Virus record (IMG/VR): IMGVR_UViG_2663762857_000011
Coordinates: 1 to 4,903 of that record
Reading direction: 5' to 3' (one strand)
Origin: a virus
Taxonomy: Duplodnaviria; Heunggongvirae; Uroviricota; Caudoviricetes
Length of the DNA: 4,903 nt
Below are positions 366 through 4,903 of this stretch, one piece after another; within the stretch, counting starts at the first letter, position 1; each line of letters starts with the position of its first letter. The notes below the pieces were generated by a model. That model was not told the DNA's origin. It saw only the letters and a program-made list of their open reading frames with translations, and did not search any database. The position numbers and the translations under genes were made by a program.

Positions 366-973
366 TGGTTGCCTCCTTTGCGAATCTGTTCCGCCCATTC
401 TTCTAGGGATTTCTCCGCATATTCACCGGACAGGCCATCAATCGGGTGTGGTTCATTAGCCAACTCTTCTTTCGCTGACAGAATCATGCGTGTAACGTCG
501 AAAACTTCACGTAAAGACTTATTGATAAATCCGTGATTGAAAGCAGCAGCAAGACGGCTTGCGGTATAGTTAATCCCCTCGTTGCGTGCTTCCGCACGAA
601 TTTCAGCCAGGAAATCATCGGTGGCTGGAGTTTCGCTGTGGTGCAGGGCATCGTTGATAATCATTGCAGCAACACCAGCCTGCCCTGCATCCGTGACCGA
701 CACATGCTCAAGAGTTACGGCCATTGCGTGTTTCAGCCCCGCATTCTCCGCCGCCAGCGCCGAAAACTTCTCGTGTGCCAACTTAACAGCTGCATCAGCC
801 TGCTTAATTGACTCAATCGCTTTCTGTTGGTCTTCGGACAGAGCCAAAATCTTGGCCTCCGCTTCAGCAAATTTACGCACCAGATATTCAGCATTTGTTT
901 CATTCACTTTCAGATCTCGTGGTACACATTTCCCGCGAAGAAACCCTTCCATTTCGAAAACATTCATGCGCAT
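362..973 (-). CDS. Hypothetical Ala-rich, probably alpha-helical protein (203 aa), early-left operon
   Basis: ORF track 362..973. ATG at 973 has GGAG 8 nt upstream and overlaps the upstream gene end by 10 nt. An alternative ATG at 967 forms an ATGA overlap with the upstream stop. The stop overlaps the next start (GTGA). No family recognised from sequence alone. Confidence 0.7.
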   Translation of the reverse strand: MRMNVFEMEGFLRGKCVPRDLKVNETNAEYLVRKFAEAEAKILALSEDQQKAIESIKQADAAVKLAHEKFSALAAENAGLKHAMAVTLEHVSVTDAGQAGVAAMIINDALHHSETPATDDFLAEIRAEARNEGINYTASRLAAAFNHGFINKSLREVFDVTRMILSAKEELANEPHPIDGLSGEYAEKSLEEWAEQIRKGGNQ

Positions 974-1500
974 GTGCGTAACTCCGATAACTCGTTAAAG
1001 CGCTCCATAAACATCCCGTAGGCATGGCTCGGAGCCAGTGGAATAACTTTGAACATTTCTGTTGCCGGGATACCTTCCAGTACTGGCCAGAAAGAGCCAT
1101 CATCAAGCCCGAGATCGCGACGTTCGGTTGCCAGCATAATGAGATCGGCATATTTCACTGGCGTGCTCATAACAGGAGGTAACCCGTATTTCTCACGGAT
1201 TACGGCGTCTATTTTTTCTTCCATCCGTTTATAGTCAGGAAGAAGGCGTTTCAGTGGCGCGGGGATGTCCTGGCAATACGCTTCTGTTGCATCATGCATT
1301 AATGCTTCAAAAGCAAATTCCTGCGGTACCAGCTGGCTGCAAAGCACCGCATGTTGGGCGACGCTGTAGAAATGAGAAAGATGACCGGCAAAGCGGCAGA
1401 TATTTGAAAGGGAAACCGCGATATCGTTAATCACGATGTCGTCTTTATTTATCTTGTCATAATAAAAATGCTTCCCGGAAAAAGTTTTAATAAATGACAT
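964..1500 (-). CDS. yfdR: HD-domain phosphohydrolase, YfdR-like 5'-deoxynucleotidase (178 aa)
   Basis: Start trimmed from the ORF-track 964..1569 to ATG at 1500..1498 (MSFIKTF...), which has GGAG about 7 nt upstream. HD signature: H...H (RFAGHLSHFYSVAQHA) followed by ALMHDATEAYCQDIPAPLKR, resembling the YfbR/YfdR pattern recalled from memory. Length equals the 178 aa recalled for prophage YfdR. The symbol is a family-level assignment, not a verified ortholog. Confidence 0.75.
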   Translation of the reverse strand: MSFIKTFSGKHFYYDKINKDDIVINDIAVSLSNICRFAGHLSHFYSVAQHAVLCSQLVPQEFAFEALMHDATEAYCQDIPAPLKRLLPDYKRMEEKIDAVIREKYGLPPVMSTPVKYADLIMLATERRDLGLDDGSFWPVLEGIPATEMFKVIPLAPSHAYGMFMERFNELSELRTCA

Positions 1501-1541
1501 TTTGTTCTCCACGTTATATGCGCTGCACCGCTCTGAATTTT

Positions 1542-1592
1542 GATTGCAGCAATCCAGCCCATTTGACATGGGATGATTGCTGCAATTTTTTT
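1542..1592 (+). terminator. Terminator-like extended hairpin on the plus strand (12 bp perfect stem, inner 5 bp stem, then T-run), opposing the minus-strand operon
   Basis: attgcagcaatc (1543..1554) pairs with gattgctgcaat (1575..1586). The loop holds a nested palindrome cccat-ttgac-atggg. Six to seven T follow (1586..1592) on the plus strand only. Lies between the RdgC-like stop (1591..1593) and the HD gene start (1500). Confidence 0.45.
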
Positions 1593-2508
1593 AAGTTGTT
1601 GGATTTTGGCTTTTATCTTCTTTGTAAGAAAGAAGGTCACACATCAAATTAACTACCTTGCTGAATTGGAAAAGGTCAGCGCCAGTCTGATGACGCCACT
1701 GGAATGCTTTATCATCTTCATCATTAAATGTCTGAGATTGAGTATTGATGCGCGAAAAATGGAAATTTTCGGTAAGAATGAAGGTCACACCGCAACCGGA
1801 TAACTCCATTTTATCAGCAGTGAAACTACTACTAAGGCTATCGGCCAGTTCGCTTTGAATTGACTCATGCTCAGCTGAGTAGCGAATAATTTCCTTTTGA
1901 TCTGCGTAGCGTGATAGCTGAATATAATTTCCGACAGTGAATCCTTCAAATGCATTGGCTGCACCATTGATGTAGTTATTCAGGCGTGTAGTCAGTCCAT
2001 TCTTGATATCACTGATGTTGATTGTTTCTGTTTTCACTGAACCGACAACCTTAATCAGCATTGCGCATACCATACCGGCTATTATTTTATTGGTTGTGTT
2101 GATTACCAATAATTTCTCATCAGTGCTGTACAATGCAAGAATCAGCGTAGACTTAACAAATGCCTGTTTGCATAGATCTACTCGTACGTTATCAATAATG
2201 GTCAGTCGTTCGGCACGCTTTAATTTATTCCCGGACATATTTTCGATTGTTTGGATTCGAGAATTAGCTTCTTTCATGACGACATGTCGGGGAATTATTT
2301 TCTGATCATGACGGATTACCATTGCGTACCCACCAGATATCGGAGTTACCAGTTCACCAGTGACAGGATTCTCTACAAAAGAGGACCGTGAAAGTTCTGT
2401 TTCCCCGATTTCAGAATAAGGGAGTTCGAGAAGATGACCTTCAATAGCCTGTATACTAGGTAATGTTGCTCGGTACACAATTGCGTTACGAAATTTTGGT
2501 AATTTCAT
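1591..2508 (-). CDS. rdgC: RdgC-like recombination-associated protein (306 aa)
   Basis: Start trimmed from the ORF-track 1591..2658 to ATG at 2508..2506 (MKLPKFRNAIVYR...), preceded by GAGGA at 7 nt. The N-terminal motif FRNAIVYR resembles RdgC FKNLMVYR. Further blocks (GYAMVIRHDQKIIPRHVVMK; KLKRAERLTIIDNVRVDLCKQAF) align with E. coli RdgC as recalled from memory. The upstream in-frame extension is a TTG-initiated read-through of the structured leader with no RBS. Confidence 0.75.
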   Translation of the reverse strand: MKLPKFRNAIVYRATLPSIQAIEGHLLELPYSEIGETELSRSSFVENPVTGELVTPISGGYAMVIRHDQKIIPRHVVMKEANSRIQTIENMSGNKLKRAERLTIIDNVRVDLCKQAFVKSTLILALYSTDEKLLVINTTNKIIAGMVCAMLIKVVGSVKTETINISDIKNGLTTRLNNYINGAANAFEGFTVGNYIQLSRYADQKEIIRYSAEHESIQSELADSLSSSFTADKMELSGCGVTFILTENFHFSRINTQSQTFNDEDDKAFQWRHQTGADLFQFSKVVNLMCDLLSYKEDKSQNPTT

Positions 2509-3107
2509 TCTATTTTCCTCTGCACAAGATATTAGTTTCTCCACAAAACAGAGAAGAACACCTGCGGTGGCAGCCGCCCGGGTGGATTGGGTTATGAGCC
2601 CGTCGTCCGGTGATGCTCTTCTCTGTTTTGTAAAAAGAGCGGTACCAGCCGGAAGCAAGTGTACAAACTGGTACCGCCAAAGCAGTGGCTGCTGTGGTGA
2701 CCGATGCTGATCTCCGGCTTGCGGTTATTTCAGACTCTCACGGGCGTTTAATTGCCCCGCCGAACAGCTCTTTTCCGCAATAGCTGCAATGTCTTTCGTG
2801 CATCAGCCTGCGCATTCACCACAACGCTGAGAGCACTTAGCCAGTTACGGCACCACACTTTGTCGCGGTTCCATAAATGCCCTCATCGTTGCACCCTGGT
2901 CTCTTCCCAGGTGTCAAACCGAACCGCCACGCTGGTTAGGCGTCTTATCAGCATCCTCATTGACTTGCACATTCCGGCTACCTGGTTTGTTTGCCCGAGC
3001 AAGGAGTGGATTGTCCCCTTTAACGTCCCCAGACCGCTAACGACGCATGTGCCATACGCCGTGTTACAACCAAATTTTGTTTAATCTTGCCTGTGACATG
3101 TTTCTTT
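2509..3107 (-). other. Long (~590 nt) untranslated, GC-enriched, inverted-repeat-rich leader between the pL-like promoter and the first leftward gene; candidate structured RNA or regulatory element
   Basis: No minus-strand ORF of 60 aa or more. All three minus frames are interrupted by stops (one frame has stops at 3066, 3039, 2916, 2847, 2805 and 2727). Local GC is about 55-57% against roughly 40-45% in flanking genes (estimated by eye). Multiple hairpins, including the 18 bp inverted repeat at 2543..2631 and GGTACCAG/CTGGTACC at 2641..2675. Confidence 0.4.
2543..2631 (-). repeat. 18 bp inverted repeat flanking a 53 nt GC-rich loop (89 nt hairpin) just upstream of the RdgC-like RBS
   Basis: Plus acaaaacagagaagaaca (2543..2560) against tgctcttctctgttttgt (2614..2631). 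The single mismatch is A/C on the plus strand but a G.U wobble on the minus-strand RNA, so the stem is fully paired only in the leftward transcript. Confidence 0.6.
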
Positions 3108-3142
3108 TAGATACATTATGTATCTCAAGGGTACATTGTCAA
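3108..3142 (-). promoter_or_regulatory. pL-like early leftward promoter (-35 TTGACA, 16 nt spacer, -10 CATAAT)
   Basis: On the minus strand, TTGACA at 3142..3137 and CATAAT at 3120..3115. Sits immediately downstream of the cI terminator and upstream of the leader. The -10 is overlapped by the 17 bp palindrome. Confidence 0.5.
3109..3125. promoter_or_regulatory. Operator-like 17 bp perfect palindrome (agatacat-t-atgtatct) overlapping the -10 of the pL-like promoter (oL candidate)
   Basis: Perfect 8 bp arms around a single central base. The position overlapping a promoter -10 is typical of a repressor operator. Confidence 0.45.
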
Positions 3143-3180: not shown

Positions 3181-3855
3181 TTAGGCCTTTATTTTGTATC
3201 TTCTTGGTTTTCCTGAGAAAATTACTGTGCCAATTATAGAGCAATTACCGTTGATCTTAATGTAAGGTTCAGGCCAGTTTGGGTTTAATGCTTTGAGGTA
3301 ACGCTGTGTTCCATCTTCTATCAACCGCTTAAAGGTGGTTTCGCCTGTATCGTGCATCAATGCAATAACGTCGTCACCGTGGCAGGCAGGGACTTCAGGA
3401 TCTACAAAAATCATGTCTCCCGGGCGGTACTCATCAATCATTGAATCACCAATCACCCGCAAGATATAAGTCATTTCGCCACAGGGTACAGGGCAGGGAT
3501 AAGTTTCTGCTGTGCTCAAATCAACCTCAGAATAGCCAACTTCTTTCCATGCTCCGGCCTGTACCCATGATATGACAGGGACTAACGTTATTTGTTTGTT
3601 AGTAATTGAAACATCAGGTTTTTTTGTGATGTTTGTTGTCTGGTGTTCTTGATCAAGCCATCCGACAGGCAGGTCGAAACATTTTTCGATGTGCCGTGCC
3701 ATGCTGTCACCGATATTTTTAGTAGCACCATCTCCCATAAACCTGCTGGTCTGGGTTGGCTCGCGATCAATCATGGTGGCAAAGGAAGAATTCCCGCCAA
3801 CACCATCTCTCAGTTTTCTGGCGTTAGACCGCCGGATGTCATGGACTGTTTTCAT
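3181..3855 (-). CDS. Prophage repressor, CI/LexA family (N-terminal HTH plus C-terminal S24 autopeptidase), 224 aa
   Basis: ORF track 3181..3855. The C-terminal domain has the S24 signature: GDSM with Ser138, FKRL with Lys176 (38 residues apart), and a candidate Ala100-Gly101 autocleavage site (VQAGAW). The N-terminal 70 aa is HTH-like. Divergent from the Cro-like gene and followed by a terminator. Confidence 0.9.
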   Translation of the reverse strand: MKTVHDIRRSNARKLRDGVGGNSSFATMIDREPTQTSRFMGDGATKNIGDSMARHIEKCFDLPVGWLDQEHQTTNITKKPDVSITNKQITLVPVISWVQAGAWKEVGYSEVDLSTAETYPCPVPCGEMTYILRVIGDSMIDEYRPGDMIFVDPEVPACHGDDVIALMHDTGETTFKRLIEDGTQRYLKALNPNWPEPYIKINGNCSIIGTVIFSGKPRRYKIKA

Positions 3856-3871
3856 AACGAAATTAAAACCT

Positions 3872-3890
3872 TTGTACCGATAGGGTACAA
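3872..3890. promoter_or_regulatory. Operator-like 19 bp perfect palindrome TTGTACC-gatag-GGTACAA in the cI/cro intergenic region (oR candidate)
   Basis: Perfect 7 bp arms with a 5 bp spacer. Located 17 bp from the cI start codon and about 55 bp upstream of the cro start. GTAC-containing half-site-like motifs recur at 3934..3948 and 3131..3136. Confidence 0.45.
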
Positions 3891-4747: not shown

Positions 4748-4903
4748 ATAGTTTAACGGCAAATAACCGTTTGCATATTGATTCTGCAATTCCGGGACGT
4801 TACACTGCTCAGGCACCTTATAAAGCGGGGGCCGGGCGTGGAAACCCGAAATTCAATATAGAGCACAACCGCGCTCATGCGGTTTTTTCGTGTCATGAGC
4901 ATC
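4744..4903 (+). CDS. Hypothetical protein, partial: N-terminal 53 codons, continues past the right edge; occupies the position of a replication or early gene
   Basis: ATG at 4744 overlaps the upstream TGA (ATGA). GGAG lies about 10 nt upstream. The frame is open to the window end (MNSLTANNRLHIDSAIPGRYTAQAPYKAGAGRGNPKFNIEHNRAHAVFSCHEH). No family recognised. Confidence 0.4.
   Translation, partial: MNSLTANNRLHIDSAIPGRYTAQAPYKAGAGRGNPKFNIEHNRAHAVFSCHEH

Follow-up and report, generated by a model that had tools for sequence, protein, structure and literature searches.

Between two minus-strand genes of a lambdoid prophage, a stable hairpin is followed on the plus strand by a run of seven T residues, which raises the question of which strand this structure serves and in what capacity. 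The sequence-only reading of the 4,903-nucleotide stretch analysed here (the window) had proposed that the hairpin could be a plus-strand terminator, either forming the 3' end of an antisense RNA of the lambda OOP type or acting as a convergent terminator, and had named an internal processing or stability element of the minus-strand mRNA as the other option. The antisense terminator is a tempting reading of a T-run that lies on the wrong strand, and the pattern of wobble pairs among relatives corrects it in favour of the mRNA strand. The prophage from which the window comes is lambdoid, with SfV, cdtI, Ayreon and several Stx phages among its relatives. The window takes in its immunity and early-left region, where the relevant features, in the direction of minus-strand transcription, are as follows.

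3181..3855, minus strand: LexA/S24-type repressor gene (cI-like)
3115..3142, minus strand: near-consensus pL-like promoter, TTGACA-16-CATAAT (promoter scan)
1591..2508, minus strand: rdgC-family gene of 305 amino acids, the upstream cistron (Pfam PF04381, 5e-31)
1586..1593, minus strand: UAA stop codon of rdgC (1593-1591) running into A7 (1592-1586), the complement of the plus-strand T7
1575..1586, minus strand: 5' arm of the lower stem on the mRNA (AUUGCAGCAAUC, read from 1586 to 1575; inverted repeat and fold)
1558..1572, minus strand: upper stem CCCAU/AUGGG (1572-1568 with 1562-1558) with loop GUCAA (1567-1563; fold)
1543..1554, minus strand: 3' arm of the lower stem on the mRNA (GAUUGCUGCAAU, read from 1554 to 1543; inverted repeat)
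1532..1542, minus strand: A/U-rich single-stranded linker CAAAAUUCAGA, the conserved (C/U)AAAUU flank (sequence comparison) and possibly an RNase E-type site
1520..1531, minus strand: second small hairpin, GCG-GUGCAG-CGC, upstream of the yfdR ribosome-binding site (fold)
1498..1510, minus strand: Shine-Dalgarno GGAGAA (1510-1505) and yfdR start codon AUG (1500-1498), the start being that of RefSeq relatives
964..1500, minus strand: yfdR, HD-domain 5'-deoxynucleotidase, the downstream cistron (Pfam search and RefSeq relatives)

The identities that had been given to the two neighbouring genes, an RdgC-like protein and an HD hydrolase, are confirmed by the Pfam matches and by RefSeq annotation. 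An rdgC annotation is present in relatives L003 and L004, and the HD hydrolase, which matches the YfbR-like family at 2.8e-5, slightly below the curated cut-off, is annotated in RefSeq relatives as yfdR or 5'-deoxynucleotidase. The gap between the two genes is indeed 90 nucleotides, from the stop at 1591 to the start at 1500. According to a recent survey, some lambdoid phages have an RdgC homologue, possibly RexA-like, immediately to the left of cI (PMC12315714); in the window, pL/oL separates cI from rdgC. YfdR has been reported to bind DnaA (PMC4776307). An operator-like palindrome (3118-3136) lies inside the pL spacer, and a perfect operator copy, TTGTACCGATAGGGTACAA, is found at 3872-3890 between the cI-like repressor and cro-like genes, so that the palindrome TTGTACC-N5-GGTACAA is matched twice, at oL and oR, against 0.17 matches expected by chance. 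A canonical terminator-like hairpin (3169-3152) comes after the repressor gene. The genes rdgC and yfdR and the hairpin between them are on the same strand as pL and downstream of it, the hairpin about 1.5 kb from pL/oL, and pL at 3115..3142 is presumed to be the source of the hairpin-bearing transcript.

Several further features of this region were noted. The approximately 600 nucleotides between pL and rdgC (2508-3115, minus strand) contain no convincing open reading frame and no N-like gene that we could see, but only short reading frames such as that of a 25-amino-acid CxxC peptide (2738..2815). The part of this leader just upstream of rdgC (2500-2700, minus strand) is very strongly structured (-77.7 kcal/mol, z -5.7), with a 12-bp hairpin (2677-2639) followed by UCUUUUU, the whole (2677-2630) resembling a sense-strand terminator, and a 25-bp hairpin (2631-2543) whose 3' foot abuts the rdgC ribosome-binding site. 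Such a leader suggests a need for antitermination in the pL operon, or else gating of rdgC translation. Inside rdgC, two promoter-like sites directed toward yfdR (1921-1949 and 2081-2109, minus strand; 9 of 12 matches each) recall the internal promoter of lambda rexA, and the number of promoter-like sites in the window is not above chance. Elsewhere in the window, a match to the Rfam family isrK, an Hfq-binding prophage sRNA, was found at 4813-4889 on the plus strand (57.7 bits against a gathering score of 50), ending in a terminator-like hairpin (4867-4884) followed by TTTT.

The hairpin itself has the shape that had been described for it. The repeat search yielded a perfect inverted repeat of 12 nucleotides, 100% complementary, formed by 1543-1554 (ATTGCAGCAATC) and 1575-1586 (GATTGCTGCAAT), and within the 20 nucleotides separating the arms lies an inner 5-bp stem, CCCAT at 1558-1562 with ATGGG at 1568-1572, closed on the plus strand by a TTGAC loop. 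The T-run is confined to the plus strand, where T7 occupies 1586-1592 and its first T pairs with A1543; on the minus strand, A7 precedes the stem, as had been pointed out, and CAAAAUUCAG follows it, leaving the sense strand without a U-tract. As for the claimed overlap with the rdgC stop codon, the T-run is overlapped by the stop (1593-1591) and the stem is not. Folding energies were -25.6 kcal/mol for the plus strand (z -4.7) and -25.3 kcal/mol for the minus strand (z -5.3), and none of 200 shuffled sequences equalled either value. On the mRNA, the structure comprises 17 pairs with a 2x3 internal loop. The terminator scan of the window did not list the site (1543-1586), a miss that we attribute to the limit of 3-8 nucleotides on the loop, which the two-tier hairpin exceeds. 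As all pairs of the stem in the window lineage are Watson-Crick, the stem carries no strand information by itself, and comparing the energies of the two strands is uninformative for lineages of this kind, namely the window group and that of Klebsiella.

The relatives of this locus show how far the hairpin extends beyond the window. A protein search anchored on the window RdgC gave 80 viral contigs with RdgC identities of 61-100%, nearly all of which carry the two-tier hairpin after the stop codon, including Klebsiella phages in which RdgC is only 67% identical and the downstream gene is a different one. A search with a DNA pattern located the same element in two more contexts, the first being behind canonical RdgC genes only about 22% identical to the RdgC of the window. 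When a canonical phage RdgC protein was used for the search, the hairpin turned up in nearly every relative with 80% identity or more, apart from L226 alone, where the region examined was read from a premature in-frame stop codon; among the canonical-RdgC relatives of 67% identity or less it is absent, and one of these has an ordinary sense-strand terminator instead. In the second context, that of 11 loci (L097-type), the element lies about 300 nucleotides after the repressor gene, in the pL leader and without rdgC. In these, namely L097 (3298-3344, minus strand) and ten similar loci, it is directly ahead of a 99-amino-acid gene and a ParB-like gene. The genes downstream of the element are varied across the family, being yfdR-like or beginning MAKTAKQLIKQAY, MNHLEFIEKNV and others.

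A covariance model built from 16 copies matches the window at 1542..1589 on the minus strand (30.6 bits, E ~1e-6) and finds exactly one good match per locus; the sole candidate for a second copy in the same phages, an 18-bit match inside a coding region, was judged to be due to chance. In addition, the exact 18-nucleotide 3' arm was found in the genomes of 27 species, 11 of them Enterobacteriaceae (Kosakonia, Kluyvera, Atlantibacter, Enterobacter, Leclercia, Raoultella and Phytobacter among them) and 16 belonging to unrelated phyla, for which about 17 matches would be expected by chance according to our own estimate. The complementary 5' arm accompanies all 11 of the former and 0 of the 16 latter. 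The element is spread over lambdoid prophages of at least 10 genera of Enterobacteriaceae with its pairing kept. It is present in 20-50 of 5426 complete E. coli genomes, the version with rdgC being rare (20 of 5426), and no K-12 record is among the E. coli matches listed. A search of the window against Rfam gave no match overlapping 1500-1600 even at E values up to 10, and no earlier description of the hairpin was found in the literature.

Its layout on the mRNA is consistent across the family. An upstream stop codon or leader is followed by an A/U-rich stretch, a hairpin of 14-17 bp with a variable loop, the (C/U)AAAUU linker, usually a second small hairpin, and then the Shine-Dalgarno sequence of the next gene, with the stem starting 5-12 nucleotides after the upstream stop codon. 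The second hairpin keeps its K-UGCAG loop among relatives while its stem covaries (ACGCG/CGCGU, GGCGCG/CGCGCC), and it is also common to the yfdQ-type phages (SfV, Ayreon and ST64B-like). Its loop is complementary over 6 nucleotides to the 3' arm of the main hairpin. Most relatives of the prophage have yfdQ in place of rdgC, and homology with the SfV, Ayreon and Stx-phage relatives is interrupted from the foot of the stem (1542) to about 2532, which is 24 nucleotides upstream of the rdgC start; a cassette of rdgC plus hairpin therefore replaces yfdQ and its own hairpins. The junction in these sister yfdQ phages is occupied by different sense-strand hairpins, also stable, of which one bears a terminator annotation in phage Ayreon. 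Comparison of the flanking genes shows that the element travels as a unit between different neighbours.

In order to determine on which strand the helix is maintained, the pairing of the copies was compared. A single consensus alignment made with MAFFT was dropped, as two helix registers coexist in the family, in favour of the covariance model and folds of each sequence. On the mRNA the G/U-rich 3' arm (AUGGGUUGGGUUGCUGC) hardly varies, a constancy that is partly by construction at the many loci found with a DNA pattern fixing the 3' arm and CCCAT, only the two protein-based sets being unbiased in this respect. The A/C-rich 5' arm does vary between lineages, through changes that are nearly all C to U or A to G. 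These are the only single steps away from a Watson-Crick pair that keep the pairing, and they can arise in the A/C-rich arm alone, so that the lopsided conservation of the arms follows from wobble geometry and a sequence-specific reader is not needed to explain it. Minimum-energy folding of 51 distinct copies gave 746 pairs, 119 of them G.U, and at every variable pair the 3' arm supplies an unchanging G or U. When these 51 copies are aligned by the model, in an alignment that was fitted to the structure and leans toward the model, 96.2% of cells pair, compared with 25-44% when the partners are slid, and 8 of the 16 pairs alternate between Watson-Crick and wobble forms (C-G with U.G, A-U with G.U). 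Most of the variation is one-sided, from Watson-Crick to wobble, and no pair in this alignment has changes on both sides.

The two strands differ in what this variation does to the helix, since wobbles on the sense strand become A.C mismatches on the opposite one. In 16 copies, which were chosen for a continuous helix on the sense strand, 91.9% of cells pair on the sense strand; the antisense figure is 71.3%, and nine pairs there deviate solely through cells left unpaired. Antisense folds are weaker by up to 11 kcal/mol, as in L165 (-12.1 versus -23.4 kcal/mol for the sense strand). The rare changes in the 3' arm keep the pairing as well: the window group has U-A where its relatives have C-G or U.G, and in L231 and L235 a U-A pair replaces the U.G of their relatives. 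The upper stem is invariant among relatives, and the loop varies in both sequence and length (3-5 nucleotides; UCUC, GUCA, CGCA, AAGC, GCA, GUCAA and others). The helices of L154 and L165 are continuous, the internal loop thus not being conserved, and in L027-L030 (RdgC identity 86-90%) the lower stem is weak or formed with another partner. Judged by this pattern of substitution, selection is shown to keep the helix on the sense (minus-strand) RNA. In L154 (8444-8491) the copy is a perfect 17-bp palindrome of -33.9 kcal/mol, and the search pattern is matched by either of its strands; this copy may resemble the state ancestral to the drifted, wobble-bearing 5' arms.

If the hairpin and its U7 were instead an intrinsic terminator of plus-strand transcription, ending an OOP-like antisense RNA over the yfdR start or stopping antisense transcription that heads for the immunity region, the form seen in the window would fit well, with a stem of -24 to -25 kcal/mol and U7 directly after it. 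Runs of 5-8 A residues after the stop codon also recur in L118, L120, L125, L154, L183 and L188, lineages with few G.U pairs in which the antisense hairpin is about as stable as the sense one. Conservation in related prophages, to which the sequence-only reading had looked for a check, nevertheless divides the structure: the hairpin is kept, and the T-run that a plus-strand terminator needs is not. Only about 13 of 77 distinct variants have six or more A residues just upstream of the stem, the equivalent of the plus-strand T-run. In place of the T-run, Klebsiella phages have GTTCTAATCA, with UGAUUAGAAC just upstream of the stem on the mRNA; other relatives have a T-run on the other side, and in L052 and L205 a U-run stands just upstream of the stem on the mRNA. 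Moreover, the runs of A8 and A7 in L165 and L176 stand before a hairpin that falls apart when folded as antisense RNA (-12.1 kcal/mol, against -23.4 for the sense strand), which suggests that antisense termination is not what the A-run is for. The T-run of the window is the complement of UAA and five further A residues, so it is the A-run after the stop codon in this lineage that gives the hairpin its terminator look. The three pairs adjoining the U-tract are A-U or U-A, and such pairs next to a U-tract are weak for termination. A source of plus-strand transcripts is likewise hard to find. All six promoter-like sites in the scan of the whole window are on the minus strand, in agreement with the earlier dismissal of a promoter-like plus-strand motif as unconvincing, and the search for extended -10 elements gave a single match, TGTCATAAT at 1455-1463, with 0.94 expected by chance. 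The plus strand has no plausible gene upstream, the reading frames there overlapping minus-strand genes, and the promoter of an OOP-like RNA, to be expected 50-150 nucleotides upstream, would fall in the downstream genes, which differ among family members. With the helix kept through G.U wobbles that are A.C on the plus strand and the T-run not kept, neither the OOP-like antisense RNA nor the convergent terminator gains support from the comparison. We consider plus-strand termination unlikely, and equally so as a possible second function, specific to some lineages, on top of a role on the sense strand.

The remaining alternatives would place the function in protein binding, in translation or in the DNA. 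A site for a phage or host protein on the nascent transcript, whether for antitermination of the nut/boxB or put kind or for a translational repressor, would accord with two stem-loops over about 75 nucleotides in the pL transcript, with the terminator-like leader hairpin (2677-2630), owing to which the operon probably needs antitermination, with the lack of an evident N-like gene, and with the position of the element about 300 nucleotides from the repressor gene in L097-type phages. It is nonetheless very unlikely, given a loop that, unlike boxB, is free in sequence and length, no boxA-like motif seen in the flanks, a second hairpin replaced by unrelated ones in some members, a position downstream of the terminator-like leader hairpin, and a near-invariant 3' arm that wobble geometry alone explains. 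The covariance model found nothing better than E = 0.2 in positions 22000-33000 of HK022, a span comprising the immunity and replication region, in which the put sites were assumed to lie without being located. Scarcely more than a slim chance is left for a DNA-level element (a repressor operator, a palindrome serving as recombination linker at a mosaic joint, or a hairpin formed in the DNA as a cruciform or from a single strand) or a neutral relic, although the homology with yfdQ-type phages breaks exactly at the stem foot at 1542 and the element is common to otherwise unrelated flanking genes. The strand-specific changes of the G.U type would weaken a cruciform in duplex DNA, the arms are unlike the oL/oR palindrome, and pairing kept across at least 10 genera argues against a relic; a hairpin in the non-template DNA strand is possible. 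The idea that the AUGs of the upper stem open a leader reading frame (MGW(V/I)AA...) or an extended YfdR, coupling translation of rdgC and yfdR, appears the most remote. The AUG at 1567-1569 is in frame with yfdR (964..1569, 201 amino acids), that at 1560-1562 opens a frame of 37 codons, and a stem starting 5-12 nucleotides past the stop is within reach of a terminating ribosome. Yet both AUGs lack a Shine-Dalgarno sequence, the reading frame from AUGGG varies from 7 to 66 codons across the family with only the six stem-encoded residues in common, and the element persists where there is no upstream reading frame. A MGWVAA leader peptide was rejected on account of this variable length, the conservation being at the nucleotide and not the peptide level, as was an N-terminal extension of YfdR from 1569, since most relatives have no such AUG and some close ones carry a 1-nucleotide indel. 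Two other candidates were also set aside: a sense-strand intrinsic terminator, because no copy has a sense U-tract, and a captured terminator of host rdgC, as the K-12 rdgC gene is followed by an unrelated REP-like palindrome when read from its sequence.

The hairpin is therefore best seen as what it probably is, a cis-acting stem-loop of the minus-strand early-left (pL) transcript that forms a conserved single-copy element of lambdoid prophages in Enterobacteriaceae. Of the options that the sequence-only reading had named, the internal mRNA processing or stability element fits best with selection on the sense RNA structure, and a processing or stability determinant of the pL message is its most likely role, the mechanism being putative. 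The hairpin may serve as a double-stranded target of RNase III, or as a nuclease barrier flanked by A/U-rich RNase E-type sites; after cuts in these flanks it would provide the upstream segment with a 3' barrier and the downstream segment with a 5' cap-like structure. In either case, yfdR and the genes after it would be free to meet a different fate from the leader or rdgC segment. When RNase III sites were mapped across the E. coli transcriptome, they proved to be enriched in intergenic regions within transcripts and in 5' untranslated regions (PMC6212723). The element is found in both settings, between rdgC and yfdR and, in L097-type loci, in the pL leader, and its occurrence without an upstream reading frame indicates that it is not tied to termination of rdgC translation. 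The helix is 14-17 bp long in relatives, compared with about 20 bp in classical RNase III substrates.

A wider role for the roughly 90-nucleotide unit of two hairpins, linker and ribosome-binding site is also conceivable, if quite unlikely: it might be a portable RNA cassette that marks and perhaps promotes mosaic joints, maybe with an activity beyond nuclease processing. Such a cassette could act as a two-way RNA insulator, combining a sense-strand processing site with an antisense terminator in the A-run lineages, or could represent a new class of cis-acting elongation or antitermination signal, and would then be a functional version of the 'linker' in modular phage evolution. What the comparison defines more directly is a compact structured RNA motif at the junction of rdgC, a RexA-like or recombination-modulating gene, and yfdR, one that prophages of E. 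coli, Klebsiella, Salmonella and further enterobacteria have conserved and that Rfam lacks. If this motif controls the relative expression of rdgC and yfdR, this has a bearing on the way in which such prophages tune their early-left functions. Among the RNA motifs of enterobacterial lambdoid prophages it is apparently an uncatalogued one, and it is an ordinary element of a familiar kind; as intercistronic stem-loops of mRNA are well known, its general significance is modest.

Among known systems, the RNase III sites of phages are exemplified by those of the T7 early mRNA, such as R1.1, and by the lambda N-leader hairpin. The element resembles them as a stable stem-loop with a variable loop, located between cistrons or in the leader of a polycistronic early transcript, and in the window copy also by its internal loop; it is unlike them in having a helix of only 14-17 bp and an unconserved internal loop. 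Intercistronic stabiliser hairpins include the malE-malF REP hairpins, those of papBA processing and the Rhodobacter puf stem-loops. With these the element shares a stem-loop a few nucleotides past a stop codon, the lack of a U-tract, A/U-rich flanks and an operon whose cistrons may need different levels of expression, while differing from them by its single copy per prophage and its presence in a leader without an upstream gene. Dispersal of the REP/BIME type is not seen, as the element occupies one or two places per genome and the matches listed are all next to rdgC. The likeness to lambda OOP, a hairpin and U-run opposite an early operon that overlaps a gene end near a translation start, belongs to the window copy, and the element is unlike OOP in that no promoter was found, its U-run is unconserved and its pairing is maintained on the other strand.

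The antitermination sites of lambdoid phages are also structured RNAs. The put RNA is a two-stem RNA of about 70 nucleotides and conserved sequence just downstream of pL or pR, and a nut site consists of a short stem with a conserved purine-rich pentaloop together with boxA. Like HK022 put and the nut sites of lambda and P22, the element is a structured RNA of an early lambdoid transcript, with two stem-loops over about 75 nucleotides (PMC9378689); unlike them, it lies 1.5 kb from pL, past the terminator-like leader hairpin, its loops are unconserved and its second hairpin is interchangeable. The counterparts at the same location are the junction hairpins of the yfdQ phages. Whereas theirs are G+C-rich with U-rich tails on the sense strand and the rdgC type never has a sense U-tract, both stand after the first large gene of the pL operon and before yfdR, and the AACCAAAAUUCAG linker and the second hairpin are common to the two.
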